From NCBI GenBank assembly GCA_944350095.1, contig CALVOB010000018.1:1-58445 (forward strand): a DNA stretch of 58,445 nucleotides. The letters are read 5' to 3'. The notes under the pieces are model-generated. The model was not told where the DNA came from and searched no databases. It saw nothing but the letters and a program-made list of their open reading frames with translations. How positions within the stretch are numbered: the first letter of the stretch is position 1; each line of letters begins with the position of its first letter. Of this stretch, positions 38,857-54,716 are shown piece after piece. Source of the stretch: an uncultured Clostridia bacterium (GTDB taxonomy: Bacteria; Bacillota; Clostridia; Christensenellales; UBA1242). The translations under genes were made by a program, and so were the position numbers.

Positions 38857-38897
38857 TTTAATTTATTTTAAATTATTTTAAGATTTTTATTATATTT

Positions 38898-39185: not shown

Positions 39186-39411
39186 TTAATTTTTTTCCTT
39201 TTTTCTTGGGCATTATTATAACTTTTTTTATTTCACAAATATCTTCTTTTATATCTTCAACGATATCTAAATGATGTGAAAGTTTTTTAATTGCGTCTTG
39301 ATATTTTTCTTCCCGCTTTTTACTATCCTTAATTTGAATAAATAAAAGTGATACAAAAAGTATGGCAAAAATACCATTACTTATAATAATATTAATAATA
39401 TCTTGCCACAT
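39175..39411 (-). CDS. BhlA/UviB-family holin-like protein
   Basis: Single N-terminal TM (GIFAILFVSLLFIQIK), then DSKKREEKY and a helical tail, as in BhlA/UviB. Confidence 0.5.
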   Translation of the reverse strand: MWQDIINIIISNGIFAILFVSLLFIQIKDSKKREEKYQDAIKKLSHHLDIVEDIKEDICEIKKVIIMPKKKGKKLNEI

Positions 39412-39413
39412 AA

Positions 39414-40283
39414 CTATCTATTTTTTAGAGCTTGCAAAAGTGTAGCGTAATAATTGCCAAGTTCAATTTTATATTGGTCGTTATTAGTAAGTTCAGCCAA
39501 AGCTTCATCTTTATCTAATGTATAGAAATATGAAAGAGCTAAGTTGTACTTTTCCCCTTCTTTAACTCTATTTAGAGCTGTTGAACCATATTTACCAATA
39601 AAATCTGCTAATTCTTGATTTTGCTTTTGCTGATTTAATTTATACTCAGCTTCTGTTTCCGCTATCTTGTTGTTATACTCTAATACTTCCTTTTCTTTTT
39701 CTTCAATTTCTTTATTAATCTCTTCTATTTTTTCATTAAGTTTGGTAGCGTAAGAAATATCAAAGGAATTTAATGCATTTTGTTTTTGACTTTCTAAAAG
39801 CGATTTTTCTTCTTCTAATTCTTGAAATTTTTGATTATATTCTTGATCTAATTTAGAATATTCTTCAAGCATACCTTGGTCAAAAGCATCTAAAATATTT
39901 ACAACAATTGAAGACCTAGCAAGGCCTCTACTAGTTGCATCCATAGACGCATCTTGTTTTAATTCAGAATATGTGTTTTTTAAACTTTCCTTTTGTGTAT
40001 CTAAATTTTGTTTATTAGTAGATTGAAGATTGTTTATACTATCCACTTTTGTTGAATATTCTTCCAATATATCGTTTTTACCTTGGTCTAAATAGCTTTG
40101 CAAACTAGACTTAGCACTTTCTTCCACTTCTTCCTTAGTTGGAGCTGTGTATTCCATTCTATCAAGGGTTAAATCGGAATTATCAAAAGAATATTTTTTA
40201 TCAATGTTTTTAAACTCATCAAAAAGATTAGCTTGCTTATTTATTTTTTCTGACTGTTCGTCTGTAAATTTGTATGTATACAT
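39414..40283 (-). CDS. Coiled-coil phage-module protein (289 aa)
   Basis: Start at 40283 after AAAGGAG. Heptad-rich E/K/Q sequence. Function unknown. Confidence 0.5.
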   Translation of the reverse strand: MYTYKFTDEQSEKINKQANLFDEFKNIDKKYSFDNSDLTLDRMEYTAPTKEEVEESAKSSLQSYLDQGKNDILEEYSTKVDSINNLQSTNKQNLDTQKESLKNTYSELKQDASMDATSRGLARSSIVVNILDAFDQGMLEEYSKLDQEYNQKFQELEEEKSLLESQKQNALNSFDISYATKLNEKIEEINKEIEEKEKEVLEYNNKIAETEAEYKLNQQKQNQELADFIGKYGSTALNRVKEGEKYNLALSYFYTLDKDEALAELTNNDQYKIELGNYYATLLQALKNR

Positions 40284-40382
40284 TTTTTCTCCTTTTGCAT
40301 TTCTCTTAAATTTAAAATTTCTGGACATTTTTCATAAAAATTTTTTCTTTTAAACCTTTGTATTTTATAATAAATTTCTAAA

Positions 40383-41888
40383 TCATCCATAAACTGAAAG
40401 CACCACTTCTGGACAAGAAATTTCCGCATTTCCATTTTCCGTGATAAAGCTTAATTGAATATACTCTCCACGAACATTTGTTCTCACTCTTTGCGTTCCA
40501 TCTTTTCCTAAAATTTCATATTCTTTTTCTTCAATATCAGATTTTACAACTATTTTACAATCATACTTACTTTTTATAAAAACTTCTTTTATACGCTTTT
40601 GCTTACCAGCATAACCTAAATTAGAATTAGGAGAAAGCCACACACTTTTTAAAACTTCCCCAAACACTGTTCCATCATGAGTTAACTCACCCATTTTATT
40701 GGCATAAGTTCCATTAAAACAAGCAACAAGTTTAGATACTTCTCCTTCTTCAAGGCTAATCATTTTATTTATATCAACACCACGCATAATGTTTATATCA
40801 CCAGACTTTAAGTCATATTCAATAAGAGCATTGTTTATAAATTCACCCGTTTCACAACCAATTTTTTCATCGTCTGGAAAATTGAGTTTACAAGCTAAAT
40901 AATATTTGCCGTTATGAAAAACGCTAGACGCATTTTCATTCTCAACACCCTCAAACATACTCTCTATTCCAAGGTCAAGTTTTGTTGTTGTATAGCCACT
41001 AAAATAATGAACACCGTCTTTGGCTAAAAACATTATTCTATCTCCGCACGAACAAACTGTTCCACCATATATTTTAACGCTTGATATGAATAATTGACTT
41101 ACACTAAAATCTTCAAGCGAGCCATAAGCCGAAACTCTGGCAACACCATAATCACGAAATACATATACATAATCATTAAAAGATAACACTGCACACATAC
41201 TTCCGCGCTCATCTACCATTTGAATAAAGCCAGCTTCATCTAATTCATAATTCCATGCTGTAGGGTCTAAATTTGCGCTAAAAACAAGAGTGTTTCTTTC
41301 GCCCTCTAAAATGGCAAATAATCTTTCATAATGAATACAAACTGATACAAGTTTTGGTGCATCATCATAGGTTTTTGCTAAATAATTTTGTGTAAACACA
41401 AGCATTGAATCGGTTGGAGATGAAAAAATCATACAATCTTCACCATTAAGTCTATAATTTATAGCAACAGGAACGCTTGTAAACAATGGAATGTCTGGAA
41501 CTTTAAAAGAATTAGAAACATAATGTAAAACATCAAAATAACAAAGGTCACCATCTTGTGTGGTGTACATAATTTTATGTTTTCTCTTTTCAGTTAAATT
41601 GTCGTAATACCTAAAATGCCAAAGATTTGTTATGTTTTTATTTTCATAAATTTCTATAACTCTATTTTCACCAAACTCATCGGGTATAGTGTTTGGAAGC
41701 GTAAGTTCTTTAAAGCCAAGCCCTGTTTTTAATGCGCCGTTTTTAACTTGATAATTGTATACAAGTTTGCCTTGTTTGTGTGGAAGAAGATTATCATCTA
41801 TTTCTGTGTTCATACCAGAAGCAAAACTAGAATAAGTAATTTTATAATTTTTTGTGGACTTTGTTTTAACCTTATTTGAATAAAACAC
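40383..41888 (-). CDS. Phage-module structural protein (about 501 aa), beta-rich; tail/nozzle/receptor-binding candidate
   Basis: Position after the connector-like gene. Preferred start is the GTG at 41888, 8 nt after AGGAGG and overlapping the upstream TAG; the track start at 41897 abuts the RBS. Confidence 0.5.
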   Translation of the reverse strand: MFYSNKVKTKSTKNYKITYSSFASGMNTEIDDNLLPHKQGKLVYNYQVKNGALKTGLGFKELTLPNTIPDEFGENRVIEIYENKNITNLWHFRYYDNLTEKRKHKIMYTTQDGDLCYFDVLHYVSNSFKVPDIPLFTSVPVAINYRLNGEDCMIFSSPTDSMLVFTQNYLAKTYDDAPKLVSVCIHYERLFAILEGERNTLVFSANLDPTAWNYELDEAGFIQMVDERGSMCAVLSFNDYVYVFRDYGVARVSAYGSLEDFSVSQLFISSVKIYGGTVCSCGDRIMFLAKDGVHYFSGYTTTKLDLGIESMFEGVENENASSVFHNGKYYLACKLNFPDDEKIGCETGEFINNALIEYDLKSGDINIMRGVDINKMISLEEGEVSKLVACFNGTYANKMGELTHDGTVFGEVLKSVWLSPNSNLGYAGKQKRIKEVFIKSKYDCKIVVKSDIEEKEYEILGKDGTQRVRTNVRGEYIQLSFITENGNAEISCPEVVLSVYG

Positions 41889-42451
41889 TAAATCCACCTC
41901 CTAGATGGTAATCTTATTTCGCTTTTTTTAGAATAGGCTTCTTTTAGTCCACTATAAAATCTTGTTTCCCATACTTCTGCATCATCATAAAGCCCTGTAA
42001 TTAAACAAAATTCCATTGCTATGCCATAAGCAAGAACTCTATCTTGAATTTTACCGCCAAACATGAAAACTTCGTCTTCAAATGATAACTCTTCTGGAGC
42101 GTAGCTATATGTTAATTGTGCACAAAGAACATTTGCATGAATTCCATCTTCTTCAAGAGAATATGGTATATTTTTTCCATTGGCATAGAGTTTTCTAATT
42201 TCTGTTATGGTTTTTGACAATTTGTTATAAGCAAGCACCCCATCTATGAAAACAACTTGTTCAGTTTTTATAAGTGGAATATAAGCAGTAGCTATTTCAT
42301 TATAAACAAGGTTAAAACATTTTTTTAAATGTTCTATTTCTGTATTTTCAAGAGTTGGAATTGTGGTTTGCTCACCAAATGGAGAATATATAAGCAAATC
42401 CTCCCTGTTTAAAAACATTAACGCAAGTTTTAATATTTCCTTAACTTTCAT
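41888..42451 (-). CDS. Head-tail connector/adaptor-like protein (187 aa)
   Basis: Called from position and size, plus an N-terminal MKVKEILKLALMFLNREDLL pattern reminiscent of gp6-like connectors. Weak. Confidence 0.35.
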   Translation of the reverse strand: MKVKEILKLALMFLNREDLLIYSPFGEQTTIPTLENTEIEHLKKCFNLVYNEIATAYIPLIKTEQVVFIDGVLAYNKLSKTITEIRKLYANGKNIPYSLEEDGIHANVLCAQLTYSYAPEELSFEDEVFMFGGKIQDRVLAYGIAMEFCLITGLYDDAEVWETRFYSGLKEAYSKKSEIRLPSRRWI

Positions 42452-42710
42452 ATACTCCTCTCTTTCTATTTTCTTCGTCTAGTTCTTTTAATAATCTATC
42501 CCGATTTTCAACACGGGTTTGATTAACAAAATCTATTGTACGAGAGTCTAATTCATCAAAAGGAACAGTCAGACAATATGTGTCTGACTGCCCACTGTGA
42601 TGAATTTCATACTTTTTCTTTTTCGTGTTATAGAGGATAAAATATTTGAAATCTATCTCTTTTAGCCTTTGGCTGATGTAATAAACATCATTTTTTATTT
42701 CAATTAGCAT
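42441..42710 (-). CDS. Hypothetical phage-module protein (89 aa)
   Basis: Strong AGGAGGAG RBS and translational coupling to the next gene. Confidence 0.5.
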   Translation of the reverse strand: MLIEIKNDVYYISQRLKEIDFKYFILYNTKKKKYEIHHSGQSDTYCLTVPFDELDSRTIDFVNQTRVENRDRLLKELDEENRKRGVYES

Positions 42711-42731
42711 TTTTCTCCTCCTATTTTTAAG

Positions 42732-42810
42732 GCAAGGAAGTGCCGACTTTAAAAAGTCGGCTGGCGATGAAATCGCCTAAAAATTTTTACAAAAATTTTT
42801 ACTTCCTTGC
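42732..42810 (-). repeat. Four-way-junction palindromic element (subfamily II copy) abutting the capsid stop codon
   Basis: Outer GCAAGGAAGT/ACTTCCTTGC encloses GCCGACTTT/AAAGTCGGC, GGCGAT/ATCGCC and TAAAAATTTTT/AAAAATTTTTA. Confidence 0.7.
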
Positions 42811-44046
42811 TTAATTTCCTGCGTTAGTTTCTTGAATAGCAGTAACAATATCACTAAACGGACTAGAAACAGTAGCAGATATATTAGAAATTTTAGCCTG
42901 ACCATTAGGTCTATCGCAAATAAGGTCTGCGTATTTAACAAGAGTAGCTGAATATGTAGGATAACCAGCGTTTTGTTTGATAACTTTTCCGTCGTCACCT
43001 TCAAGCCATTTCCAGTCGCAAAGTTGATGAAGTGTAAAATCATTAGTATTAAGTAAATACATAGTTCCATCTTCAACAAATCTATCTGCAACAACAGGAA
43101 TACCGTTGTAAGTTATAGCTTTATATCCACCGCTAAGCTCACAAACATCTATGTTTCTTCTAAACTTAGTTAAATAATCTTGATAAGCTCTTCTAACCTT
43201 TGTTGAACAAGAAATAAAGTTTACTTCACTTCCGCTAGCCTGCTCTAAGAAATCTATTGCATCTTGAATTAAAATGTCAGAAATTTCTGTAGCAGTGTTA
43301 GAAACATAAGGGTTAAGCCAAGGATATTCGCTTTTTGTTAAACCATAAAGTGTAGCATCAGCACCAAAAATAGCACCTAATCCTGTAATTTCGTATCCCT
43401 TAGAATTTTGAACATAAATTTTAGAACCGCTTGCAATGCTAGCACTAAAAGAAGATTCAAAATCTAAATAAATCCTTTTGTTAGTTCTATCCACAAAAGT
43501 AACTCTATATCCACTTGCATCTTCAATTTTAGAATCTGCATTATAAATATCTACAACCATACCTTCTATAAAATTTCTTACATCGTCCATTTGAAGATAT
43601 TTTTCAGAATTAGAATAAACTTTTGTTGTTGTTCCAAGAAGACCTGTACCATCACCATAAAGCATTCTTCCAAGATTAAAACTACTAGCTTTTATTAAGC
43701 CTTCCATTTCATCATTAAGTAAATTTACAAATGCACCTGCATTATTTGCAGAAGCTCTAATAGCCTTATCAGAAATTTCAATTTTTCCATAAAGGTTTTT
43801 AAGTGATGTTTTGAATTGAACATAATTATTCCCCGCAGCCTTTGGAAGAGGGTCTGTTTCGTCACCAGCACCTATACCGCCGTTAATACCATAAGGTGCA
43901 AGTTTAATAATTTCTTTTCCCCACACATCTTGTGAAGATTGTTTAATTTTGCCAAGAAGAGGATTAGCATTTATATTAAGTTGATTTGCAACAACTCCAA
44001 GATAAACACTTTTTAACGCCTCGTTAGCACTTGAAATTGAAACCAT
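42811..44046 (-). CDS. Major capsid protein (HK97-fold candidate, 411 aa)
   Basis: Lies directly after the scaffold gene. Size and the LYGKIEISDKAIRAS..A.V..L..E..GL......N..R.LYGDGTG pattern resemble phage capsid families. Confidence 0.7.
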   Translation of the reverse strand: MVSISSANEALKSVYLGVVANQLNINANPLLGKIKQSSQDVWGKEIIKLAPYGINGGIGAGDETDPLPKAAGNNYVQFKTSLKNLYGKIEISDKAIRASANNAGAFVNLLNDEMEGLIKASSFNLGRMLYGDGTGLLGTTTKVYSNSEKYLQMDDVRNFIEGMVVDIYNADSKIEDASGYRVTFVDRTNKRIYLDFESSFSASIASGSKIYVQNSKGYEITGLGAIFGADATLYGLTKSEYPWLNPYVSNTATEISDILIQDAIDFLEQASGSEVNFISCSTKVRRAYQDYLTKFRRNIDVCELSGGYKAITYNGIPVVADRFVEDGTMYLLNTNDFTLHQLCDWKWLEGDDGKVIKQNAGYPTYSATLVKYADLICDRPNGQAKISNISATVSSPFSDIVTAIQETNAGN

Positions 44047-44055
44047 AATTTTCTC

Positions 44056-44658
44056 CTATTTAAAAAATTTCTCTACAATTTTTTTAGCATCATTTAAATT
44101 TTTAGGGTTAAATTCCTCTTTTGAAGAAAGTTTAGCCCCGTTACCACCAGAAATTACAGGCGGAGCAACTTTTAGTTCCTTTAAATAGCTTTGCAAAACT
44201 TGTTTTTTAATTTCTTCATTATTAAAAACATAAGAATTTAAAAAGGTTTTATCACTAACCAATTTTTCTGGTTCAACATATTTTTTCATGGCTATGCTAG
44301 ACCATGCAAGTTCCAAAGCATTTTCTTTAGATTTTAGTTCAGAATTATTTAAAATCTCCTCAGAAATTTCTTTGGAATATTTTTTAGCCTCTGGATTTTT
44401 TTCTAAAAAATTGGCTACGCGTCTATTCCAATCTTCTTCATTATAGATAGTTTTATTTTTTTCATTTTCCAGAGCACTTAATTTTTGACACTTCTTAGTA
44501 AACTCTGCCTGCAAATTGTTATAGGCGTTAAGTAAACTTTGTGCGTCTTTAAATTTTCCAAGGGAGCCATCACTTTCAAGATTTGCTGTGCCACTAATGC
44601 AATCCTTTTGCACCTCACTATCAAGATTTGGTTGTTCCCTAATAACATTTTCTTCCAT
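44056..44658 (-). CDS. Scaffolding protein
   Basis: Acidic helical 200-aa protein between portal and capsid genes. Carries the GKFKDAQSLLNAYNNLQAEFTKK motif common in phage scaffolds. Confidence 0.55.
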   Translation of the reverse strand: MEENVIREQPNLDSEVQKDCISGTANLESDGSLGKFKDAQSLLNAYNNLQAEFTKKCQKLSALENEKNKTIYNEEDWNRRVANFLEKNPEAKKYSKEISEEILNNSELKSKENALELAWSSIAMKKYVEPEKLVSDKTFLNSYVFNNEEIKKQVLQSYLKELKVAPPVISGGNGAKLSSKEEFNPKNLNDAKKIVEKFFK

Positions 44659-46499
44659 TATTTATTTTCTCCTACTATAGATAAAATTTGTTTATGCGTT
44701 CTTATATGTTTTAAAAGCTCTTCTTTTTGTTTCTCTGTAAGTTCGTTAGCCAAATAAAATGATGTATGCTCATCTATATGCAAACTATGATTGTCTATCT
44801 CACAAGGCTCTGGCATACTTCCTTCTAAAAGCATAGCATTTTCTTTACTAGCTCTTTTTGTGTGTTGCTCATTTAAATCTTGTGAATTTTCCCAAATTCC
44901 AAACCCTAAAAGCTCCAATGCTTTTATTCTCATACGGTTACTTAATTTTCCGTTTTCGTCATGAAGAAGACCAGCATTTAAAAGTTCAAGCACCATACTT
45001 CTACGCTGAGCCAAGCTTTCATTTATTTCATTTTCTGTTTCAAAAACAACTTCATCAGAAGTTATATCAGCTGATGTAAAGTATAAAACTTCAAGGTCAC
45101 CATTTTCACCTACAATCTTTAAAAGTCTAGGAAGAGTAGCAAATTGTTTGTAAAGCCTTAAAACTTGTTGCGCCATTCTTCTTAGTGCCTCTCTAATATT
45201 TTCAGCCGTAACTGAAATTCTGGTTTCATCTTGGTCAATCAAAAGTTGAAGAGCCGTTCCACTTAAACTATTAGTTATTGTGCTATCATTTAAAATATCA
45301 GAAGTTCCACTAACCACAGTAAACTCATTTAAAAGCCTTTCTTCTTCATAAGTAAAATCTAACGGCACACTACCTGTGCTTAAATATTTTGGAGCAGAAG
45401 AACCTTGCCTATAAACAAGCACTTTGCCAGGACATAAACCTTCTTCTTCTAAATTTTCTGTATCCACAGAGCCATCTTCTACTGTTAAAATCCCCATAGA
45501 AAGTCTGTTTAAAAACTCGTGCTTTCTATTTTTGATTGCATTATAAGAGCGTTGAAGTGGAATAACTCTTTCCACAATGCTAGTTCCCCAAAAACTACCC
45601 GTTTGGTCACAAGCAACTTGTCTAATAAATGGGAATCCTCTTTTGCCATCTTCACCATTAATAAAAGGCAGTTCCCCAACATACAAAAGTTTATCCCCTG
45701 CAACTATAACAAGTCTACCATTAGGATATTTAATAGTTGGAGCTTCATATCGTTCGATTACTATTGCATAATTATCTCGTGAAGAAGATATAACCTTGTT
45801 TACATTTGTGTTATATCCAAGCCCACCCATATTTCTAGATACACCATCTAGTGAAAAAACATTTAAGGTTTCGCCTTTAACATCTACACCCCACTTATTT
45901 TTAATTTCGTCTACATGATAAGCTTTTGCATGAATTAAACTTCTACAATCCTCGATATTTGCACAATTTACGCTTTCAGGGTATATTTCAAAAGGAGATA
46001 CCGCAGTTATTTCGATATCTCCCATAGTTATATTTTCACCTTTATTATTTTTTGCTAAAAAATTTCCTTTTGCACTATTCCAAATAATTTTATAAAAAGA
46101 AGTTCCACAAATTTCGCTCCACTTTGTAGCTTCTGTAATTACATTATAAACATTTAATTTGTTATATATAGAATTTACAATTTTTTTAGATATTTTAGCC
46201 GTTTTAATATCTCTTTCATCTCCCGATGATGGAATAACCGTCATAGTAGGACGAACTCTTTGAAGTTTTGCCATTCTTCTTTCTATTAGCGGTGCTATGT
46301 GATTATAAACTTCATGTTCTTGCCAAAAAAATTGTTTTTCAAAGTCAGTAATTTCGCCGTTATAACCAATGCCACAATATTGATTACCCATAACAAAATT
46401 CATATTTAATTGCCACTGTGCTTCAAAACTTCTTTTTTCTTCTTGTCTTTTTTTAAAGTCTTCTATAACTTCATTTACTAATTTTTCTTCAACTTTCAT
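44658..46499 (-). CDS. Portal protein (613 aa)
   Basis: Called from synteny (upstream of scaffold and capsid) and size. TAATG stop-start overlap with the scaffold gene. Confidence 0.6.
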   Translation of the reverse strand: MKVEEKLVNEVIEDFKKRQEEKRSFEAQWQLNMNFVMGNQYCGIGYNGEITDFEKQFFWQEHEVYNHIAPLIERRMAKLQRVRPTMTVIPSSGDERDIKTAKISKKIVNSIYNKLNVYNVITEATKWSEICGTSFYKIIWNSAKGNFLAKNNKGENITMGDIEITAVSPFEIYPESVNCANIEDCRSLIHAKAYHVDEIKNKWGVDVKGETLNVFSLDGVSRNMGGLGYNTNVNKVISSSRDNYAIVIERYEAPTIKYPNGRLVIVAGDKLLYVGELPFINGEDGKRGFPFIRQVACDQTGSFWGTSIVERVIPLQRSYNAIKNRKHEFLNRLSMGILTVEDGSVDTENLEEEGLCPGKVLVYRQGSSAPKYLSTGSVPLDFTYEEERLLNEFTVVSGTSDILNDSTITNSLSGTALQLLIDQDETRISVTAENIREALRRMAQQVLRLYKQFATLPRLLKIVGENGDLEVLYFTSADITSDEVVFETENEINESLAQRRSMVLELLNAGLLHDENGKLSNRMRIKALELLGFGIWENSQDLNEQHTKRASKENAMLLEGSMPEPCEIDNHSLHIDEHTSFYLANELTEKQKEELLKHIRTHKQILSIVGENK

Positions 46500-46509
46500 A
46501 ATTTCTCCT

Positions 46510-46719
46510 TTAAATTTTGCTTAACCTTTTAGGTGAATAAGGTGCATCTAAGCTTCTTGGTATAATACTTCTTCCAAGCTCCTCAAAAAGCTCCTTTTTA
46601 CAATTTTCACAAAAGTGAATTTTAGGGCTAAATCGTTTTCTAGTAAAAAAGCAATATTTAGCCTCATTTTTACAACCCAGCATATCGCAAGTAGCCTTGT
46701 AAGAAATTTCTCTAATCAT
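46510..46719 (-). CDS. Small zinc-ribbon protein (69 aa)
   Basis: C..C(x)..FCENC cysteine pairs. Confidence 0.5.
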   Translation of the reverse strand: MIREISYKATCDMLGCKNEAKYCFFTRKRFSPKIHFCENCKKELFEELGRSIIPRSLDAPYSPKRLSKI

Positions 46720-47002
46720 AATCCTCCTCTTCTAAAAGCTTAATAAGTCTGTTGCGTTCAGCTTTTAATTCTTCATCAGTCATAAGTTCAATTTCTTCCC
46801 TGCTTAAATTTCCATATCTTTCAATTAAAATTTTCATAGCAGAGATATCAGGTGCATAATGTTTTTTAGTAACTTTCTTTTTGCAAAGTTTAGCAGTACC
46901 CTCTTCATCAAAGGAATACTCTTCAACAACTTCATCTGCGTCATATCCTAACGCTCTTTTTATCAAAGCCTTCTTTAATTTTTTCTCGTTAAATTCCTCC
47001 AT
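46712..47002 (-). CDS. Terminase small-subunit-like fragment (96 aa, no HTH)
   Basis: ALGYDADEVVEEY..KKKVTKKHYAPDISAMKILIE resembles the C-terminal half of Firmicute phage TerS proteins. From memory only. Confidence 0.35.
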   Translation of the reverse strand: MEEFNEKKLKKALIKRALGYDADEVVEEYSFDEEGTAKLCKKKVTKKHYAPDISAMKILIERYGNLSREEIELMTDEELKAERNRLIKLLEEEDYD

Positions 47003-47119
47003 AAAAAACCTTCTTAAATTAAAAAAGTTACCGCCGAAAATTTCCGCGATAACTTTAATTACCTATATTTTATTTTATAAATATAAAAAATTCAATTCCA
47101 CATGACAAAATAAGGTTTA

Positions 47120-48022
47120 TTACATTCCTTGACCGCCTGATGCTCCATCCTGCACAGTTTTTACTTTAGTTGTAATATTAAGTGTATAATCAACACCTTG
47201 AGTTAATTCAGGTACTACAAACTTTGTAATAAATATGTGCTTATCTGGAATCATTCCTCCATGAAAAGTTAAATCAAAGTCTGCTTGATCTGTAATTATA
47301 TCTCCTTCCCTAAGCATAAAGGGTTCAGATGTAGATAATGTTACTTCTTCACCATTAATAAAAACATTACTATGGTTTGAACCTGAAGATAGATACAATT
47401 CCGCATAAACAGGTGTATACTTTTCAAAAACAAATTCCGCATTAAGTTGTCTTTCTTCTCCTGTAAATGACTTTGTAAAATCATTTAATCTTATTGTTAT
47501 TGTATAAGTATAAGGGCTAACTGTTCCAGTATATGCTGGCAATATTATAGAACCTTCCTTACTTTCTATTACATTACTATCGCCAAATAAAGTTTTTAAA
47601 GCATATAAATTTATAGATTTTCTAACTAAAACTTCTGTTTCTGTGTAATTTGTAAATGTAAATTCATATTTTACTACATTCTCAGTAGTTGTAAATGTTA
47701 CATCTGTTCCTGCTGACCATGTTGCTTCTGTGCTTCCGTTGCTTGTTACAAATTTATCTGTTTGAGCACCGCTTGGCTTAGCGTCACTGTCGCTTACAGG
47801 TTTATATGAATATCCTTTTATATTAGATAAGCTTGTTTGGCTTGTTGCTGTGCCCTGTTTAATATCCCCTTGAAGCATTACATACACGCCCTCTGCTGTA
47901 AAAGATAGATTACTTGTAACATTAAAACTTACTGTACCTACTGCTAGCACTCCCACTACAAATAAACCTAATGTAAAACATAATGTGCTAATTAATGCTA
48001 TTATCTTTGTTCTTTTATTCAT
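47120..48022 (-). CDS. Membrane-anchored surface protein (300 aa), paralog of the LRR protein N-domain
   Basis: It shares several motifs with the 969-aa protein: VGVL, NVTS..SF.A.GVYV, GYSY, SNG...W..G..V.F..EN..Y..FTNY.E and YTIT..L..F..SF. Confidence 0.65.
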   Translation of the reverse strand: MNKRTKIIALISTLCFTLGLFVVGVLAVGTVSFNVTSNLSFTAEGVYVMLQGDIKQGTATSQTSLSNIKGYSYKPVSDSDAKPSGAQTDKFVTSNGSTEATWSAGTDVTFTTTENVVKYEFTFTNYTETEVLVRKSINLYALKTLFGDSNVIESKEGSIILPAYTGTVSPYTYTITIRLNDFTKSFTGEERQLNAEFVFEKYTPVYAELYLSSGSNHSNVFINGEEVTLSTSEPFMLREGDIITDQADFDLTFHGGMIPDKHIFITKFVVPELTQGVDYTLNITTKVKTVQDGASGGQGM

Positions 48023-48110
48023 ATATTTTTCTCCTGTTTTTATTTACTTATTATTATAACTTAATATTTTAAAAATATCAAATAAATATAATAAATAATT
48101 TTTACAAAAA

Positions 48111-48138
48111 AATTTACCCCCCCCCGCATTTTTGTCAA
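48111..48138 (-). promoter_or_regulatory. Promoter TTGACA-16 nt-TAAATT with a G9 tract inside the spacer
   Basis: Minus strand reads TTGACA AAAATGC-G9 TAAATT. It lies about 90 nt upstream of the 300-aa gene and just downstream of a terminator. Confidence 0.5.
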
Positions 48139-48198
48139 CTAAAAAACAACATTTTTCAAAAATTTTTTTATGCAACTTATTAATATTTTATTTTAAAT

Positions 48199-48239
48199 AA
48201 AAAAGCGAACCATTTAAGTATAATACTTTTGTGGTTCAC
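48199..48239 (-). terminator. Rho-independent terminator after the 1115-aa gene
   Basis: Minus-strand stem GUGAACCA/UGGUUCGC (one G-U, which would be a C-A mismatch on the other strand), followed by U6. Confidence 0.65.
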
Positions 48240-48267
48240 TTATTTTTACAAGTTTTAAATATAAATA

Positions 48268-51200
48268 TTAATAATAATCACTCATGAATCCTGCACTTCT
48301 AGATTTTCTTATAATTAACCAAATTGCTACGCCTAATATTCCAGCTCCACCAATTCCGCCTAATGTCCACCAAAGCCAATTAAGATTAGAACCCGCATCT
48401 TCAGCCTTCTCAATATTGGCTATCAACAAAAATTGCTGATTAGATGTTCTAAATGTTATTTCTTCATCAGAAGCAGATGAATTCTTTAAAAAACTTTCAA
48501 TTGGGTCTGATGTATTGCCCGCTTGCCAACCTTTAAATTCATAACCGTCTTTTACTTCTATCCTAATAATAACATCAGCATCTCTTGAAATAGAACCACT
48601 GAATACATAGTTATTTTCAGATGAATATTCATAAGGAACTTCATTTATGTAAATTGTTGCACAATTTTCTGTGCTTAATGAAGTTCTTACCGTCATATTA
48701 CATATTTGACTTGTAAAAATAGCTCTTAAAGTATAAACTTGGTTAATTTCAGTTGGCATTGGAACATAAAGATATGTGTTCCCTAAATTTTCACTTGAAA
48801 ATCTTATAGCAACTGACTGTCTTGCTGGTAGTCTAGTATCCTCATTGCCAACAGCAGTTTGCCCCAATTTTGCAGTTGTTAAAACCTCTTGTCCATCAAC
48901 TTCGGTAACCCAAACCCATTCTACAAATCCATAATTCTTAGCAGGAACAGCTTCAAATTCGTATAATCCTCCGCTAGAAACATTAATTTCTATCTTATCA
49001 AGTTCTTTTTGTGCCCCTCTAATTCTAACACCACCTTGTGCTAAATCCTGGCTTTCTACAACTAAATTATAGCTTATAGGCTCAGTTATAATAGTATATA
49101 GTCCGCTTGTAGAAGCATTCATTATAAATGTTACGCTCACCCCTGTTTCATCTTTAATTAATTCTAATGATTGTCCGTCTTTTTGAATGTTAGAAATTGC
49201 GTATAATAGTTCTTCACCTTCTGCAACTTCAGCTTTGATAGTAACAGTATCTCCAAATTTAACTAAATTTTCTCCTTCTTGAAAACTATCAGCTATTATT
49301 TGAGGACTTTGTTTCACATGTGTAGAATATGACAATGAAATTGTAAAGCTTTCAAAAGGTTGTAAAACAATATGTTCTTCACCTGCTTTTGCATACCATT
49401 TTTCACTAAAATTCCATGGATAGAATATTGTGTCCCACATTGATGAAGATACAAATGTGCTTTGTTCCCTAAAAATAGAAACATTAGAAACTTTTGTACA
49501 ACTAGTTAAAATATAGGTGGTTTCAGCTCCAATTAAATCATAACTTGAACTAGAAGCAGTATGGTTATATGCTATATTTCCAACAACAGGTAAATAAACG
49601 CCTGTTCCCATTTCACCAAAAAGTAATCCAACTTTTGGTGCAACATCATCATTTACAGTAACGCCATATATTTCGCCCGTTGCAAAATTATTTACGATTT
49701 TGCCTTCCCAAACAACTCCTACCAATCCACCTACTATTACATCGGTAATAGGCATACTGTCAGTAGTTAAGTCGTTTTTTACAACTTCCGCCCAAAGCAT
49801 TTTTTCTAAATTAGAGTTTGTGCAAAACACAAAACTATTTGAAATTTCACCCTCTACTTGTTTGCCAACAAGTCCGCCAACAACAATTTGACTTGCTGTT
49901 AAACTAGTACCTGTTGCCTTAATCTGTGCAGTTGAATAAGAATTGGAAATCTTTGTCCCTGTACTTGTTCCTACAATACCACCCGCTATTATTGATGTAT
50001 TTGCGTTTACTTCAATATAACCGCTTACTTCAACACTATCTATAATAGAGCCCTCGGCTGTGTGAGCAAGTAATCCAACGCTTGAACTTGATGTAAAAGT
50101 TGTCCAATCTTCAATTTTAAGATTCTTAATTGTCGCATTAGTAAGCCTATTGAAAAGACCGCCATTTTCACTTATTATAGAATTTTTTATATTTGTAATA
50201 TTAAAGGAATAATTGCTTGATTGAATATTTCCAAATAATGAATAAAATGTATAAGAAATTAACTCCTCTTCTCCTGCACTAATATATCCTATAATTTCGC
50301 TTGATGTTATTTTATTTTCCCCGCCAGCTGTACCTTCCACAACAAATGAATATCTTAATGGCGAAGAATTTACATTTTTTACATTTAATTCAAGTTGAGT
50401 TAAATTTTTTATTACAAAAGTATAGTTTTCTGGATTGTTCATAACATTTACATTATCACTAAAATATCCATTTGTTCTATTTGGATCTCCACCAATGTAA
50501 AATGAAATATCATGTTCTCCAGGAGCAAGAGTTATTGTAAATTCAGATGTACTATTTCCATCTTCCACAACCCCATTAACCTGAGCTTCCATTATTAAAT
50601 TTAAGGTTATTGCTTTGTCTGTATTATTTACAAACTTCTTAGAATAATCTGTTGGAATACATAACATATTATTTAAATTCTCAACAAAAACATAGTTTAA
50701 ACTTCCAAGTCCAAATTTTATTAAACCACTATTGATTATGTCACTTAAATTTATAAATGTTACCATATCGTTATTGATAGTATAATCAATTATTTCTGGT
50801 GTGTTTTCAGTATTTTCATATTCAATTTTTAATATATTACCTTCTTTGGAAATAGTAACTATTCTATTAGTTTCATTTAAATTTTTCAATACAAAATTGA
50901 AACTTTCATTTCCAAAGGAAACATTTAATGTTATTCCTCCAACATATCCATGATTTAATGTTGGAACAGTAAAATTTGCAGTGTTGTCATCTTGGATAAT
51001 TAGTGAGATATCGCTGTAATCAGAAACTCCATAATAATCATCTATATTTTGAGAACCAGATTCAACCGTTTTAATTTCTTCAACTATTAAAGAAATATTT
51101 TGATAGTTACTAACTACATCGTTATAAGAAATGCCTGTAAAAAGAGAAGAAATTGTGTTTGAAAGCTGAATATCACCTAAAATTGAATCTCTATTAAAAG

Positions 51201-51615
51201 TGTAAGAATTAGAATCAATAACAGTTTCACCACTAATTTGATACTTATATTTTAAAGATGAAATTTCTCTAAAAACATGCACTGAGTTAGTAATAACTCC
51301 ATCAGAAGAAGTAAGAATATTAGAACTTTGTCCTATTTCTAAATCCTGTCCTTGTGTTTGTTCAAGTGAAATAGAATATCCATTTCCATCTAAAACACCT
51401 GAAAAATTTATAGGCTTATAATCTGATGTTAATTTAATATCGCTAGCAAGATAATATGAACCTGTCGTAATTTTAGAAAAATCTTCTGCACTACTTATTG
51501 CTTCGCCAGCTGGCGTTTGAGCGCTTGCAGAATTATATGTATTATTAAAATTAAAAAAACTAAGCCCCAAAGTAGCTATACAAAAAACTAAAATTAAGCT
51601 AAATATTTTTTTCAA
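48268..51615 (-). CDS. GLUG-motif surface protein (1115 aa) with signal peptide and C-terminal TM anchor
   Basis: N-terminal signal (..SASAQ). Central GGLFN, AGGIVGT and VGGLVGK repeats. C-terminal WWTLGGIGGAGILGVAIWLII-RKSR. TTG start after GAGG. Confidence 0.75.
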   Translation of the reverse strand: MKKIFSLILVFCIATLGLSFFNFNNTYNSASAQTPAGEAISSAEDFSKITTGSYYLASDIKLTSDYKPINFSGVLDGNGYSISLEQTQGQDLEIGQSSNILTSSDGVITNSVHVFREISSLKYKYQISGETVIDSNSYTFNRDSILGDIQLSNTISSLFTGISYNDVVSNYQNISLIVEEIKTVESGSQNIDDYYGVSDYSDISLIIQDDNTANFTVPTLNHGYVGGITLNVSFGNESFNFVLKNLNETNRIVTISKEGNILKIEYENTENTPEIIDYTINNDMVTFINLSDIINSGLIKFGLGSLNYVFVENLNNMLCIPTDYSKKFVNNTDKAITLNLIMEAQVNGVVEDGNSTSEFTITLAPGEHDISFYIGGDPNRTNGYFSDNVNVMNNPENYTFVIKNLTQLELNVKNVNSSPLRYSFVVEGTAGGENKITSSEIIGYISAGEEELISYTFYSLFGNIQSSNYSFNITNIKNSIISENGGLFNRLTNATIKNLKIEDWTTFTSSSSVGLLAHTAEGSIIDSVEVSGYIEVNANTSIIAGGIVGTSTGTKISNSYSTAQIKATGTSLTASQIVVGGLVGKQVEGEISNSFVFCTNSNLEKMLWAEVVKNDLTTDSMPITDVIVGGLVGVVWEGKIVNNFATGEIYGVTVNDDVAPKVGLLFGEMGTGVYLPVVGNIAYNHTASSSSYDLIGAETTYILTSCTKVSNVSIFREQSTFVSSSMWDTIFYPWNFSEKWYAKAGEEHIVLQPFESFTISLSYSTHVKQSPQIIADSFQEGENLVKFGDTVTIKAEVAEGEELLYAISNIQKDGQSLELIKDETGVSVTFIMNASTSGLYTIITEPISYNLVVESQDLAQGGVRIRGAQKELDKIEINVSSGGLYEFEAVPAKNYGFVEWVWVTEVDGQEVLTTAKLGQTAVGNEDTRLPARQSVAIRFSSENLGNTYLYVPMPTEINQVYTLRAIFTSQICNMTVRTSLSTENCATIYINEVPYEYSSENNYVFSGSISRDADVIIRIEVKDGYEFKGWQAGNTSDPIESFLKNSSASDEEITFRTSNQQFLLIANIEKAEDAGSNLNWLWWTLGGIGGAGILGVAIWLIIRKSRSAGFMSDYY

Positions 51616-51692
51616 AATAATTACCTCACTACTTTATATTCTATCTAAATATAACACAATTATTTAAATTAACAAAATTAATTTTAAATAAT

Positions 51693-53120
51693 TTAATAAT
51701 ATTTTTTAGATAATTTTTTAATTAATTTTTCTTTATCTTTTTGAATGTCAGTTTTAAATGTTATTTTTTTAGGAATTTCAGGTCTGCTAATTATATAATA
51801 TCTAAGTTCATCTAAGGCATGGTCATCTTTTTTTACAGGATTATCCCCTTTACCCCAAAAGTATCCTTTTATTTCTCTAATTAAATTTGTGCAAGTTCTA
51901 AAAATAAAAAGTTTTGCCTTGCCCTCACCATCTTTTAAATAGCTTTTTACCCTTGAAATTCCAGCAAATAAATTTTTATCTACCTTAGGATTTGCTAGAA
52001 TTCCATTATCGTAAAAAAGTTCAACTACACTACGCTCAGCCGATAATGTCCTTTGAGTTGCTGCACTGTCTATTAAAGTAGAAATCATTCCATTACTAGC
52101 TCTGTGCCAATTTAATTTGTCTGATATTTCCTTTATTTTTTCTGCATGATAAATTATATCCCTTTTAGCTTCGTAATGCTCAGCAATTACATACACATTT
52201 CCATCATAATCTACAGCATACCAATGTGCAGACAACGGATTATTTAGTCCAGGGTCTATTGAAATATTATCTTGCCATTCATAAGGAATATCAAAAGGGT
52301 CTATTACATGAACATTTTCATCAAATTCACTATAAACTAAACCTCCATTAGCTGTAAATCGGCCATATTTTCTTGCTTCAAGCTCGCTTTCACTTAAAGT
52401 TGATGTTAAAAGTTTAATTTCATCTTTATCTAAAAAAGGATTATCTTCCCAATTCATTTGTTCGCACCAAATTTCAGGATTATTTTTTTCGTTTAAATAA
52501 ATTTCATTATAAACCCAAGTTAATCCTTTTAAAGGTGTCATAGTGCCAAATATATCACCTTTTTTATCAAAAACTCTCATTAAACATTCAAAGTATATAT
52601 CTTCTGGAGGTTCTTCATCAAACCAAACAAAATCTAAACTCGCACCTTGAAATTTATCTCTACCTTGGTCAGCACTTTTAAAATAAATTTTACTATTTAA
52701 TCCAGAAACATTTTTAATTATTATATAGTCTATAATACCACTTTCATATCCTTCTTTTCTCCCCTCAACCATGCAAACATCAACAATCCAATCAGCATTT
52801 AAATAATGCAGAATTTTACTTTGTGCAACTTCTCTTTGAACTTGTCTGGAAACAGAAACAACCCAACCTGTAACACACCTTTTATTTTTTCTGTATGGAT
52901 GAATTCCTCTTGCAAGCCAAATACATTCAACAGCTCCACATTCAGTTTTTCCGCTTCTATTTCCACCAAACACCCAACGATTTCTTTTTGGACATTTATG
53001 AAACAAAAGCTGTTTTTCATGGACAACTTTTCCTGTATTGTATCTATTTAAAGCGTTTTTAGAATATCGTTTTATAATTTCTTTATTTACTTTATCTAAT
53101 TTTTTTAATAACTCTTTCAA
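51693..53120 (-). CDS. terL: Terminase large subunit
   Basis: Walker A GGNRSGKT, Walker B LDFVWFDEE, C-terminal nuclease-like half. TTG start 7 nt after GGAGG. Confidence 0.85.
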   Translation of the reverse strand: MKELLKKLDKVNKEIIKRYSKNALNRYNTGKVVHEKQLLFHKCPKRNRWVFGGNRSGKTECGAVECIWLARGIHPYRKNKRCVTGWVVSVSRQVQREVAQSKILHYLNADWIVDVCMVEGRKEGYESGIIDYIIIKNVSGLNSKIYFKSADQGRDKFQGASLDFVWFDEEPPEDIYFECLMRVFDKKGDIFGTMTPLKGLTWVYNEIYLNEKNNPEIWCEQMNWEDNPFLDKDEIKLLTSTLSESELEARKYGRFTANGGLVYSEFDENVHVIDPFDIPYEWQDNISIDPGLNNPLSAHWYAVDYDGNVYVIAEHYEAKRDIIYHAEKIKEISDKLNWHRASNGMISTLIDSAATQRTLSAERSVVELFYDNGILANPKVDKNLFAGISRVKSYLKDGEGKAKLFIFRTCTNLIREIKGYFWGKGDNPVKKDDHALDELRYYIISRPEIPKKITFKTDIQKDKEKLIKKLSKKYY

Positions 53121-53139
53121 ATTGTGTCCTCCAAATTAG

Positions 53140-53224
53140 AAAGAGGCATTGCAATTTTGACTTCGTCAAAATTATAACTTGCTACTGCAAGTTATCTTTT
53201 GCAAGCAAAAGGCAATGCCTCTTT
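53140..53224. repeat. Four-way-junction palindromic element (subfamily I copy) upstream of terL
   Basis: 13-bp outer stem AAAGAGGCATTGC/GCAATGCCTCTTT encloses AATTTTGAC/GTCAAAATT, ATAACTTGC/GCAAGTTAT and CTTTTGC/GCAAAAG with zero linker nt. Confidence 0.7.
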
Positions 53225-53367
53225 GGTACGGGCGGAAATTTTGCAAAATACAAAAATAAATTTTTTTGCTTTGCTATATTTCTTACCACTTAAAAAAACG
53301 CAAAATTGGTATTTTTTAGACAAAAATATAAATGCCAACTTTGCACTAAAAGAATTAAAATTGTTTT

Positions 53368-54177
53368 ATGAAAATTTTATTGGTTATTGCATTAATTCTA
53401 ATAAATATTTTTACTTTTACTAATATGCCCGCCCAAGCCTCTTCGGACGAGATAATCTATGCACGAATAACCACAAACAATGTGTGTTTTTACTCTGCTC
53501 CATCGGAGAGTTCCGCCTTATTCTATATTCCAAATTCTTATTTTGTACAACTACTTGATAATGCTGGCGATGAATTTTACAGTGCACGCTATTCCGACCT
53601 ATTTGGATATGTGAAAAAAAGCGAAGTATCTCCTGTTAAAGGAAACCCTATAACCCCCTATGCAGAAAAAATTTCTTTTAGAGTTATATCGTTAAATGGT
53701 CTTGAACTTAGAAGCGTACCTAAAAGCACTTCACCATTTGAAATTGTTGACAATGTTCCATTTTTAGAAACAGACTTAGTTTACTATGGCACAATGTTAG
53801 GCGACTCCTTAGTTCCAGAATGCACAAATATTTGGTATTATTGTAAGTATCTAGATGGAACAAGAAGTTCAATGGGATATCTTTATTCTTTGTTTTGCGA
53901 CAAGTTAACAAATATTCCAACAAACACAGAAGTACTTGAAATTAGAACTGAACCAATATTTGTAGAAGAAGAGAATCCAGGCCCTAATAGTACTTTAAAT
54001 TTTTCCTCTCCTACACAAATTTTAATAGTAGTGGCAGTATGTTTGCCATGTTTACTTATAATATATCTTTTATTTAAACCTACTAAAATAGCTAATAAAG
54101 AAGTTGAGGCTAAAAATGCTAAAACTAAAAAGATAAAGCGTTTAAAAAGAAGCGATTATTACGAAATAGACGACTAA
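53368..54177 (+). CDS. Secreted SH3-like repeat protein with C-terminal TM anchor (269 aa)
   Basis: Signal peptide (..MPAQASS). Two segments resemble bacterial SH3 domains. C-terminal hydrophobic helix followed by a K-rich tail. Confidence 0.5.
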   Translation: MKILLVIALILINIFTFTNMPAQASSDEIIYARITTNNVCFYSAPSESSALFYIPNSYFVQLLDNAGDEFYSARYSDLFGYVKKSEVSPVKGNPITPYAEKISFRVISLNGLELRSVPKSTSPFEIVDNVPFLETDLVYYGTMLGDSLVPECTNIWYYCKYLDGTRSSMGYLYSLFCDKLTNIPTNTEVLEIRTEPIFVEEENPGPNSTLNFSSPTQILIVVAVCLPCLLIIYLLFKPTKIANKEVEAKNAKTKKIKRLKRSDYYEIDD

Positions 54178-54716
54178 TTCGCCAAAGATAGTTTTTTGTA
54201 GTCTCTTATAACCATATTTAAGTAATCATTATCTATTTTAACAAAATCATCATGCATAGCCTCTTTACCAACTTCAAATAACCATGTTTCGTCATGTAGT
54301 TCACTTTCAAGTTTTTCTTTTGTATAACCTAAATTTTCTGCTTCCATTGATGCCATTCCTAAGGCTTCATTAATTCTTCTATAGCAAGTGCGCTCAGATA
54401 TTTCAAAATGCTTTGCAATAGTTTTAATTGAATATCCATCTATAAATCTTAATATTAGTGTCTTTGCTAAGTTTTTATCTATATTTTTTGCAATTAAGTT
54501 TGCAAGCACTTTTAAATTAATAAGTGCCACTTTTTTTTGTGAAAGCTTTATTAAATTTTCAGTCAAATTATAAACATCGTTGTAGCTTACTGCACTGCCA
54601 CTCATAACTCCTGCATTTAAAGCCCTAGCCGAAAAAACTTTATCTATGGAGTCTATAATTCTTGGCAAATGTCTATAAACCATAAATATTGTTTTAATCC
54701 AAGTTTTTAAATTCAT
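54174..54716 (-). CDS. Sigma-70 region-4-like HTH protein (180 aa), putative transcription regulator
   Basis: LRFIDGYSIKTIAKHFEISERTCYRRINEALG resembles sigma region 4 and phage late-regulator HTHs. No region 2 was recognised. Confidence 0.5.
   Translation of the reverse strand: MNLKTWIKTIFMVYRHLPRIIDSIDKVFSARALNAGVMSGSAVSYNDVYNLTENLIKLSQKKVALINLKVLANLIAKNIDKNLAKTLILRFIDGYSIKTIAKHFEISERTCYRRINEALGMASMEAENLGYTKEKLESELHDETWLFEVGKEAMHDDFVKIDNDYLNMVIRDYKKLSLAN

Follow-up and report, generated by a model that had tools for sequence, protein, structure and literature searches.

Why does a perfectly paired, branched structure stand directly upstream of the gene for the large terminase subunit (terL) in a phage-like module of an uncultured gut bacterium of the Clostridia, and does it serve that gene, that module or neither? 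The structure was studied in a window of 58,445 nucleotides, by which we mean the whole stretch of DNA analysed. This is chromosomal DNA of a Clostridia lineage with 29% GC, and it carries a 16-kb phage-like module among housekeeping genes (rplU-prp-rpmA, ackA-pta, lgt, ogg, era and ybeY). Among named relatives, the nearest is a 'Candidatus Caccopulliclostridium gallistercoris' MAG, whose terL is 89% identical.

A linker-free four-way junction upstream of terL

The original prediction had described a 13-bp outer stem enclosing three hairpins without any linker, and the sequence reads exactly so: the four-way junction (4WJ), here termed element D, lies 19 nt from the TTG start codon of terL and 7 nt from the GGAGG of its ribosome-binding site (Table 1). 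On the terL-sense strand its 3' side runs into UUUCUAAUUU, which is U-rich but interrupted, and on the opposite strand into GGUACGG. The outer stem, taken by itself, could pass for a pair of inverted repeats. In RNA folding the 4WJ is the minimum free energy (MFE) structure of both strands, at -42.6 and -42.2 kcal/mol (z about -7), and the same 4WJ is the MFE structure of the single-stranded DNA, at -31.7 and -31.4 kcal/mol (z -11 and -9).

A detector built to find an outer stem around three abutting perfect hairpins, with perfect stems required throughout, identified four 4WJs in the 58-kb window (elements A, B, C and D, 30-38 bp each). No 4WJ of at least 26 bp arose in 100 dinucleotide-preserving shuffles of the window, and junctions with two or four hairpins were absent from the window at any strength. 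Element D was unchanged in an independent metagenome assembly (L001), and in another assembly (L088) it differed only in the loop of hairpin 2, which on the terL-sense strand reads AGTA in the window and GGAA in L088. Its presence in these independent assemblies establishes that D is real and no assembly artefact.

Table 1 Four-way junctions and terL-region features, in window positions.
Feature	Position	Strand	Remarks
Element A, 4WJ	3901-3984		14 nt past the stop codon of the gene for a 1883-aa surface protein; ZIP transporter gene downstream
Tail of element B	25840-25905		Hypervariable within the species; 11 of its 66 nt vary in a set of 11 strains
Element B, inverted copy of D	25906-25978		Outer stem only 7 bp; 2 nt past the stop codon of a 168/170-aa ORF
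Element C, 4WJ	42730-42812		Begins at the stop codon of the gene for the major head protein (42811-44046, minus strand)
terL, large terminase subunit	51693-53120	-	TTG start; Pfam Terminase_6N 1.7e-17, phrog_2 3.9e-32
terL ribosome-binding site and start codon	53118-53132	-	GGAGG at 53132-53128; TTG at 53120-53118
Element D, linker-free 4WJ	53140-53224		Upstream of terL; stems of 13/9/9/7 bp, junction gaps all 0
D outer stem, 5' arm	53140-53152	+	AAAGAGGCATTGC; partner 53212-53224
D hairpin 1	53153-53173		AATTTTGAC-ttc-GTCAAAATT; terL-sense loop GAA, C-G closed
D hairpin 2	53174-53195		ATAACTTGC-tact-GCAAGTTAT; strain-polymorphic loop
D hairpin 3	53196-53211		CTTTTGC-aa-GCAAAAG
D outer stem, 3' arm	53212-53224	+	GCAATGCCTCTTT
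Tail of element D	53225-53300		AT-rich; co-duplicated with the 4WJ; about 70% identical to 25840-25905
Putative ancestral divergent promoter/operator region	53300-53344		Palindrome GCAAAATTGGTAT...ATGCCAACTTTGC; kept in the sister species

One unit inserted twice, in opposite orientations

Element B precedes the terminator/promoter hairpin of rplU and corresponds to D in reverse complement, with 92% complementarity over 73 nt. The stems of the two copies had been predicted to be the same, and this holds for the hairpin stems, which are identical apart from a single T/C difference that is itself polymorphic; of the outer stem only the inner 7 bp (GCATTGC) are common to both. The predicted inversion of the hairpin order stands, and six of the nine loop bases are changed, compared with one of 64 positions in the stems (p = 3e-6). 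Homology extends for about 70 nt beyond the junction, on one side only, such that D with 53225-53300 corresponds to B, on the minus strand, with 25905-25840; blastn aligned the two copies at 80% identity over 136 nt. The AT-rich tail itself contains only weak matches to promoter hexamers.

Both sites are empty in the sister species. The intergenic region upstream of terL measures 247 nt in the window and 97 nt in the sister species (L082), and the region between the 168-codon ORF and rplU 270 nt and 134 nt, respectively, the unit being absent from the shorter version in each case. Element D was missing from L082-L087 (sister species, terL 89% identical) and element B from the orthologous site in L160, L161 and L163. 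The reverse case was also observed, a 4WJ past rpmA in the sister species that is missing from the window species. The flanks at the empty sites are too diverged for the exact boundaries to be placed, and no target-site duplication was visible by eye at A, B, C or D or at the empty sites. D and B are inverted insertions of one unit of about 140-150 nt, consisting of the 4WJ and the AT-rich tail, that occurs in this species only. The original prediction took the two orientations as a sign of a strand-symmetric structure, or of a repeat that is mobile or acts at the DNA level, and not of an RNA that works purely on the sense strand; this is borne out by the shared 4WJ and tail of about 70 nt, by the empty sites and by the Watson-Crick stems. 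Element D is therefore very probably a dispersed repeat that was inserted here in this lineage only.

These comparisons bear directly on the proposal that D is a pac-like or cruciform DNA site for the terminase or for another protein of the phage module. Its nearness to terL, its extreme palindromic character and its stability as single-stranded DNA are what such a site would offer. Yet of 88 related terL loci for which 150 nt or more of upstream sequence was available, only two carried D, both of them contigs of the same species, and none of the other 86 had a strong 4WJ within 300 nt upstream of terL. The sister species, with its 89%-identical terminase, lacks D there too. Moreover, a near-identical copy lies beside rplU, and the same architecture is present at housekeeping genes. 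The best candidate among the other loci, an AT-rich fold upstream of terL in L040, is weak and not comparable (6-bp outer stem, internal loops, five junction bases). A phage pac or cos site was also rejected on the grounds that D is not co-conserved with the terminase and has no match in phage records or IMG/VR; a blastn search with D and its tail against 50,697 phage records returned nothing. In addition, duplex DNA is, on energetic grounds, unlikely to extrude a branched cruciform of 85 bp. The absence of D from every other related terL locus outside its own species, together with the second copy at rplU, makes a packaging role or a terL-specific one unlikely. The reading as a pac or cruciform site, which we consider very improbable, is already largely refuted by the comparative data.

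Element D in the putative terL leader

The region beyond the tail of D (53300-53344) carries on its minus strand the motif GCAAAG-N15-TTGTCTA. In 39 of 81 relatives a TGTC motif in similar context precedes terL by 10-70 nt, compared with a background of 14%, and its form in the relatives is tGCAAG, a spacer and TTGTCa/tA. In the window the motif is located 200 nt upstream of terL, on the far side of the D insertion. Judged by its sequence, the motif is a candidate promoter, and because D lies between it and the terL Shine-Dalgarno (SD) sequence, D is probably transcribed within the 5' leader of terL and would be a lineage-specific insertion into that leader. In the predicted fold of the 231-nt leader, the 4WJ stands as a domain of its own, and the centroid structure leaves the SD unpaired.

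A location between a promoter-like motif and terL would also suit an attenuator, in which the GC-rich outer stem followed by UUUCUAAUUU stops most transcripts and a regulator encoded nearby permits read-through. The candidate regulator, a 180-aa protein (gene at 54174-54716), shows weak matches to sigma region 4 and to a Q-like antiterminator family, the sense strand past the stem is U-rich, and clear T-runs follow some other 4WJs (ATTTTTTT at the L163 element, and L051b). However, the U-tract at D is interrupted, and a scan of 52900-53500 with terminator models, which describe simple hairpins only, identified no intrinsic terminator. The sister species possesses the same regulator and terL without the element, which rules attenuation by D out as the regulatory design of the module, and the unit is also present, inverted, beside rplU. 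We consider attenuation at D improbable. Independently of this reading, D was rejected as a canonical Rho-independent terminator for its branched structure and its interrupted U-tract.

It could further be supposed that D comprises three palindromic operators, bound by dimeric proteins that control terL and a divergently transcribed gene for a 269-aa protein. The hairpins are indeed perfect inverted repeats whose halves are 2-4 bp apart, and D falls within the divergent promoter region. The conserved palindrome of that region is found elsewhere, though, at 53300-53344; an outer repeat of 13 bp that encloses exactly abutting palindromes makes sense only for folding, and the architecture recurs past stop codons with unrelated sequences. 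The operator reading seems to us extremely improbable.

Nor does D mark the upstream edge of the phage-like module, as had been proposed, since the sigma/Q-like regulator gene and the divergent 269-aa gene are located further out than D, are syntenic in the sister species and so belong to a conserved arrangement. A role of D as a terminase, packaging or module-boundary signal is not supported. As a terminase-linked structure D is ordinary or the reading is wrong; it is the class to which it belongs that is unusual.

A dispersed class of junctions behind stop codons

Elements A, C and D have a common architecture and unrelated sequences. When the loci of relatives were scanned with a relaxed, RNAfold-based 4WJ search, further 4WJs were identified in L003, L011, L012, L026, L051 (two), L055, L085, L160/L161, L163 and L244-L247. 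They include 4WJs directly past the terL stop codon (L003, L011), past large surface-protein genes (L012, L055), past the capsid gene (L085) and past rpmA (L160/L161). Across the class, the outer stem measures about 7-13 bp and the three hairpins inside it are perfect; loops have 3-4 nt, junctions contain 0-5 bases, and the elements are 73-102 nt long. Strong 4WJs were absent from about 290 kb of unrelated viral loci and from about 870 kb of IMG/VR terL relatives. An exact-pattern scan for the D/B family returned 32 matches in IMG/VR, all attributable to chance and none with a junction, and no match in JGI metagenomes, where the pattern of the L160/L163 family was not found either. A dispersed class of self-folding intergenic repeats thus exists in these uncultured gut Clostridia, in a host lineage close to 'Candidatus Caccopulliclostridium'.

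The placement of these repeats is far from even. Ten elements begin 0, 0, 0, 0, 0, 1, 2, 6, 8 and 14 nt past a stop codon, at sites that for the most part offer 17-230 nt of free intergenic space (combined p = 4e-7 under uniform intergenic placement, with two orthologous pairs among these sites, which are not independent). A 4WJ usually lies 0-14 nt past a stop codon, whether in a 3' UTR or in the gap between two cistrons, and D is the sole copy that is not behind one. The original prediction did not recognise this class or its usual placement. For element C, it saw the 7-nt spacing between D and its ribosome-binding site mirrored at this capsid-proximal copy, but the distance from the end of C to the ribosome-binding site of the next gene is in fact 8-10 nt, and its start at the capsid stop codon is the more striking feature.

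The site downstream of the capsid gene is informative for a second reason. Among the relatives outside the window and sister lineage, 19 of the 20 that could be scored have a single strong hairpin there, in many cases followed by a T-run. The window species and L085 have a 4WJ instead, and in some sister strains the same outer stem surrounds one long GC-rich hairpin of 150 nt rather than three. The hairpins of the relatives indicate that the 4WJ stands where a terminator or stabiliser hairpin normally does. As a U-rich tract follows only five or six of 14 elements, a uniform role in termination is excluded.

Stems are kept while loops and tails drift

Three comparisons between species were available for the stems. 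Element C and its ortholog in L085 differ by four compensatory double changes, with no one-sided G.U change and no broken pair. The elements in L160 and L163, which belong to one family and occupy non-orthologous sites in two species, differ by 11 compensatory changes and one G.U change, again with no broken pair. Element A and its ortholog in L244-L247 (ZIP protein 91% identical) differ by two compensatory changes in the outer stem, without G.U changes or broken pairs. Summed over the three comparisons there are 17 compensatory double changes and not a single broken pair. No loop is the same in A and L244, yet the adjoining 58 nt of leader contain a single difference. Both A and C have been kept at orthologous sites across species.

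Variation within the species follows the same lines. The 4WJ of B has two variable sites in 73 nt, significantly fewer than its tail (11 in 66 nt, p = 0.007), and the 2.3-kb B locus as a whole has 2.3% variable sites. Element C varies by a loop indel only and D in loop 2 only, and the one change observed in A, C to T, produces a G.U pair. Alignment thus shows stems that are evidently held by compensatory change, with loops and tail drifting.

The strand on which the fold matters is less clear-cut. Stems are almost entirely Watson-Crick paired and both strands fold equally well. Over 14 elements we counted five G.U pairs on the sense strand and 15 on the antisense strand, and RNA selected on the sense strand alone would not show such an antisense excess. 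GNRA tetraloops were not enriched (1 of 23). Triloops, by contrast, were enriched for GNA/TNC (7 of 17, p = 0.003), and C-G-closed GNA triloops are a hallmark of very stable DNA hairpins; the enrichment hints at a single-stranded DNA stage. Exact inversions of loops were also observed, namely TTC/GAA between C and L085 and TTT/AAA between A and L244. Templated (quasi-palindrome) DNA mutation could likewise yield perfect stems and compensatory changes, without selection on RNA.

Alternatively, the repeats could be purely selfish, non-autonomous mobile DNA, of the REP/BIME kind or like a transposable element associated with palindromes, with hairpins that are read as single-stranded DNA by a transposase encoded elsewhere (for instance of the HUH/Y1 type). 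The fold would then serve transposition, and D would be tolerated without a role for terL. The existence of one unit in two opposite orientations with empty sites in the sister species, the gains and losses that differ between close species, and the second family (L160, L163) at non-orthologous sites in two species are in line with this explanation. So are the lack of target-site duplications and of terminal inverted repeats past the outer stem, as in IS200/IS605-type elements, the equal folding of both strands and the GNA triloop enrichment. Furthermore, B and D agree in the stem sequence itself and not in pairing alone, next to a tail that has diverged by about 30%. On the other hand, neither a transposase nor a RAYT gene is present within the 58-kb window, and the families have no common sequence that one sequence-specific enzyme could recognise. 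The conservation of A and C at orthologous sites with compensatory change suggests selection in place and not turnover, and the tight placement past stop codons without a common target sequence points to functional selection and not to target choice. We regard purely selfish DNA as rather unlikely. Nevertheless, a DNA-level life cycle, based on recognition of single-stranded DNA or on templated palindrome correction, is a serious rival to RNA-level selection, given that there is no excess of sense G.U pairs, that triloops are of the GNA/TNC type and that the B and D stems are identical despite their diverged tails.

Comparison with known structured elements

Membership in known families of structured nucleic acids was examined first for classical RNAs. 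At the gathering threshold Rfam 15 returned nothing in the window besides tRNA, and a tRNA search with ARAGORN and the Rfam tRNA model found only tRNA-Leu at 872-957. The arms of D (7-13 bp, with 3-4-nt loops) do not match a tRNA-like cloverleaf with arms of 7/4/5/5 bp. Permissive Rfam scans gave sub-threshold microRNA and sRNA noise only for 53100-53380 and no family for the L082 insert. A riboswitch or ribozyme-type RNA was rejected in view of the absence of junction nucleotides, the loops being the most variable part, and the G.U counts (five sense, 15 antisense).

The REP and BIME elements of Enterobacteria and Pseudomonas are described as dispersed extragenic palindromes that give rise to stable stem-loops, mostly in 3' UTRs or between cistrons (PMC2817692, PMC3184786). 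The 4WJs are similar to them in being extragenic and foldable, in occurring in either orientation, and in combining conserved stems with variable loops. Unlike the 4WJs, a REP is one imperfect hairpin of 20-40 nt that has a conserved GTAG head, belongs to a sequence family with hundreds of copies and is tied to a RAYT gene. The 4WJs, in contrast, are closed junctions of 75-100 nt with three different perfect hairpins, fall into many unrelated families and lack GTAG. By sequence they were rejected as REP/BIME elements, being 73-102 nt long and branched, with no common head motif and with unrelated families. REPs are probably mobilised at the DNA level and yet co-opted to shield upstream mRNA from 3' exonucleases.

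Folding MITEs, such as the Correia elements of Neisseria and the pneumococcal BOX and RUP elements, are co-transcribed with their neighbours and can alter mRNA processing and stability. With these the 4WJs share the character of short non-autonomous insertions with complementary ends and of being present in one strain or species and absent from a close one. In MITEs, target-site duplications bound the terminal inverted repeats (TIRs), and there is one sequence per family, whereas no duplication is visible at the 4WJs. In the B/D family the junction forms one end of a longer unit, and three abutting hairpins without linkers are not known from MITEs. Definition as a MITE by TIR and target-site duplication was rejected, as the flanks of A-D have no direct repeats and the B/D unit runs about 70 nt past one arm. 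The comparison of strains and species that had been suggested as a test for a simple MITE did not reveal one: D is an insertion, but no target-site duplication was seen and its stems are under constraint.

Terminators and intercistronic stabiliser hairpins offer a functional parallel. In the cip-cel operon of Ruminiclostridium cellulolyticum, processing is controlled by such stem-loops (PMC10311766). Like such hairpins, the 4WJs follow directly upon a highly expressed gene, and the effect to be expected is differential stability of operon segments; unlike them, the 4WJs are branched, mostly lack a U-tract and have been duplicated to new sites, including a 5' leader.

Two further comparisons concern structures of single-stranded DNA. 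In integrons, attC sites adopt their fold in the single-stranded state, and the strand antisense to the ORF is the preferred one. The 4WJs resemble them as palindromes of conserved structure and variable sequence that start at, or close beside, the stop codon of the ORF before them, and the antisense excess of G.U/G.T pairs in the 4WJs compares with this strand preference. They differ from attC sites in having no core sites, no extrahelical bases and no integrase nearby, and their neighbours are housekeeping or phage genes rather than cassettes. An attC assignment was rejected because the outer stems contain no RYYYAAC/GTTRRRY core motifs, the stems are perfect and the window encodes no integrase. 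The inverted terminal repeat (ITR) of AAV and the fold-backs of Streptomyces telomeres consist of an outer stem around small perfect palindromes with 3-nt loops of the GNA type. The 4WJ architecture resembles both, including the GNA-type loops; those structures, however, are termini of linear replicons that prime replication, whereas the 4WJs are internal chromosomal sites beside ordinary genes.

No description of closed three-hairpin junction repeats was found in the literature searched or in Rfam. The repeat class is previously undescribed; of the kinds already known, REP/BIME elements, folding MITEs and intercistronic stabiliser hairpins come nearest to it.

Discussion

The explanation that in our view best accounts for the whole of the data, and to which we give about an even chance of being right, is a dispersed repeat of the REP/MITE kind that is selected for its fold and acts at the RNA level on the transcripts that contain it. 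The RNA-level function, taken as a separate point, we put at somewhat below an even chance. The conserved trait is a very stable, closed and branched fold in which the two ends meet. By analogy, the closest comparison would be with those REP and MITE elements that have been put to use by their hosts to stabilise mRNA.

Under the preferred explanation of a fold-selected repeat, spread of the element would occur at the DNA level and its action on the transcript would be steric and thermodynamic. Past stop codons the 4WJ might form a barrier to 3' exonucleases or stand in for a terminator hairpin. At terL, insertion would have placed D between the late-promoter-like motif and the SD, making it part of the leader transcript, where it would fold as an autonomous junction of about -40 kcal/mol that leaves the SD free; it could serve there as a 5'-proximal stabiliser against 5' exonucleases or as a weak attenuator. 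Since D sits in a leader and not behind a stop codon, its effect at terL may also be nil. Two structural properties fit this mechanism. Watson-Crick pairing allows the element to work in either orientation, in accordance with the inversion between B and D, and the lack of unpaired junction bases together with minimal, unconstrained loops leaves no room for ligand binding or catalysis.

A bolder extension, which we consider unlikely on balance, is that the elements form a superfamily of mobile, perfectly paired 4WJs in which the branched fold, and not a sequence, is what is copied and selected. Such elements would colonise, or persist at, the nucleotides directly behind stop codons, would take over the role of terminator or stabiliser hairpins there and would perhaps be moved by an enzyme specific for single-stranded DNA or for junctions, and the hypervariable loops and the inversions would be traces of hairpin-templated synthesis.

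The finding carries a warning for annotation, in that such structures near phage genes are not to be read as packaging or regulatory sites. If the explanation is true, the 4WJs would provide natural, orientation-independent 'insulator' parts for mRNA engineering, and the mechanistic question would be what copies them and why they are placed against stop codons. They would add a new architecture to REP, BIME, Correia and BOX among the dispersed structured repeats of bacteria. A lineage of abundant, as yet uncultured gut Clostridia would then use, or be colonised by, a compact branched module that can be inserted past a stop codon or in a leader, in either orientation, and that stays perfectly paired over evolutionary time despite the turnover of its sequence.

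Loop changes and differing stem contents in the four-way junctions

Loops are in general the fastest-changing positions of the four-way junctions, the dispersed intergenic repeats in which an outer stem encloses three perfect hairpins. At the junction upstream of the large terminase subunit gene terL, two of the four bases of loop 2 have changed between strains whose sequences agree everywhere else in a 250-nt stretch. Moreover, two hairpin loops are exact reverse complements between orthologous junctions (TTC versus GAA for 42730-42812 and its counterpart in L085, TTT versus (T)AAA for 3901-3984 and its counterpart in L244), which looks like a flipping of the hairpin or of its loop.

In some strains of the sister species, the capsid-downstream outer stem, GTAAGGAAGC/GCTTCCTTAC, holds one long hairpin instead of three small ones. 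This hairpin is imperfect and spans 150 nt with 56% GC. Its tip recurs at the beginning of a further locus (L048, positions 1-260), within a tandem repeat of 99 nt. The recurrence of the tip, together with the location of the long hairpin inside the junction's outer stem, suggests a separate GC-rich repeat able to replace the contents of a junction.

Positions of the features in the window and in loci from other assemblies
Feature	Window	Strand	Other loci
Large serine recombinase fragment	115-915		
tRNA-Leu (CAA)	872-957		
Junction with reverse-complemented loop	3901-3984		L244 9856-9942
Junction with reverse-complemented loop	42730-42812		L085 9618-9697
Capsid-downstream stem with long hairpin			L082 19249-19420; also L083, L084
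Very large secreted proteins containing GLUG or Listeria-Bacteroides repeats	3999-9650, 11808-13682, 21521-23074, 48268-51615		
rplU promoter hairpin	25787-25825	minus	
BspA-type leucine-rich-repeat protein gene	35472-38381	minus	
Phage-like module	38500-54716		
Promoter-like motif	53300-53344		upstream of terL in L002-L082

The rplU promoter and the left end of the window

The promoter of rplU, the ribosomal protein L21 gene (TTGACA, 17 nt, TACTAT), sits in a 12-bp hairpin that is preceded by an A-tract and followed by a T-tract and looks like a bidirectional terminator. Neither this hairpin nor the L21 leader varies among 11 strains, and both are nearly invariant in two other species. The true start of rplU is at 25710, the ORF-finder start being 21 codons too far upstream.

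At the left end (1-957), the tRNA-Leu adjoins the recombinase fragment, and in another strain (L133) the gene content beyond the NUDIX gene differs; taken together, these observations suggest an integration hotspot.

Surface proteins and the phage-like module

The BspA-type gene encodes 969 aa, contains internal DNA repeats with a 69-nt period and adjoins the phage-like module at its holin end. Its position is occupied in other strains (L122, L123) by a serine recombinase or a different leucine-rich-repeat gene. One of the genes for the repeat-containing secreted proteins lies inside the module, directly after terL, and in two relatives (L012, L055) four-way junctions stand right behind the stop codons of the corresponding genes.

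In 39 of 81 relatives, compared with a background of 14%, terL is preceded at a distance of 10-70 nt by a promoter-like motif, tGCAAG followed after 11-15 nt by TTGTCa/tA. In the window and the sister species it lies within a conserved palindrome, GCAAAATTGGTAT...ATGCCAACTTTGC, between terL and a divergent 269-aa gene. The motif is probably that of the sigma-like regulator encoded in the module itself.

The module, examined together with loci L002-L081 and L164-L243, encodes a sigma/Q-like regulator, TerL, a 1115-aa surface protein, a P22-like portal, a major head protein, DUF7934 and two holins; none of its genes was recognisable as a tail or replication gene. Its terL shares at most 30% identity with any GenBank phage terminase, yet more than 576 species-representative genomes and 399 IMG/VR contigs carry a terL with 63-72% identity to it. 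The genes flanking the module are not the same in the window species and the sister species. The module may be either a particle-forming element that has been domesticated or an island resembling a satellite.
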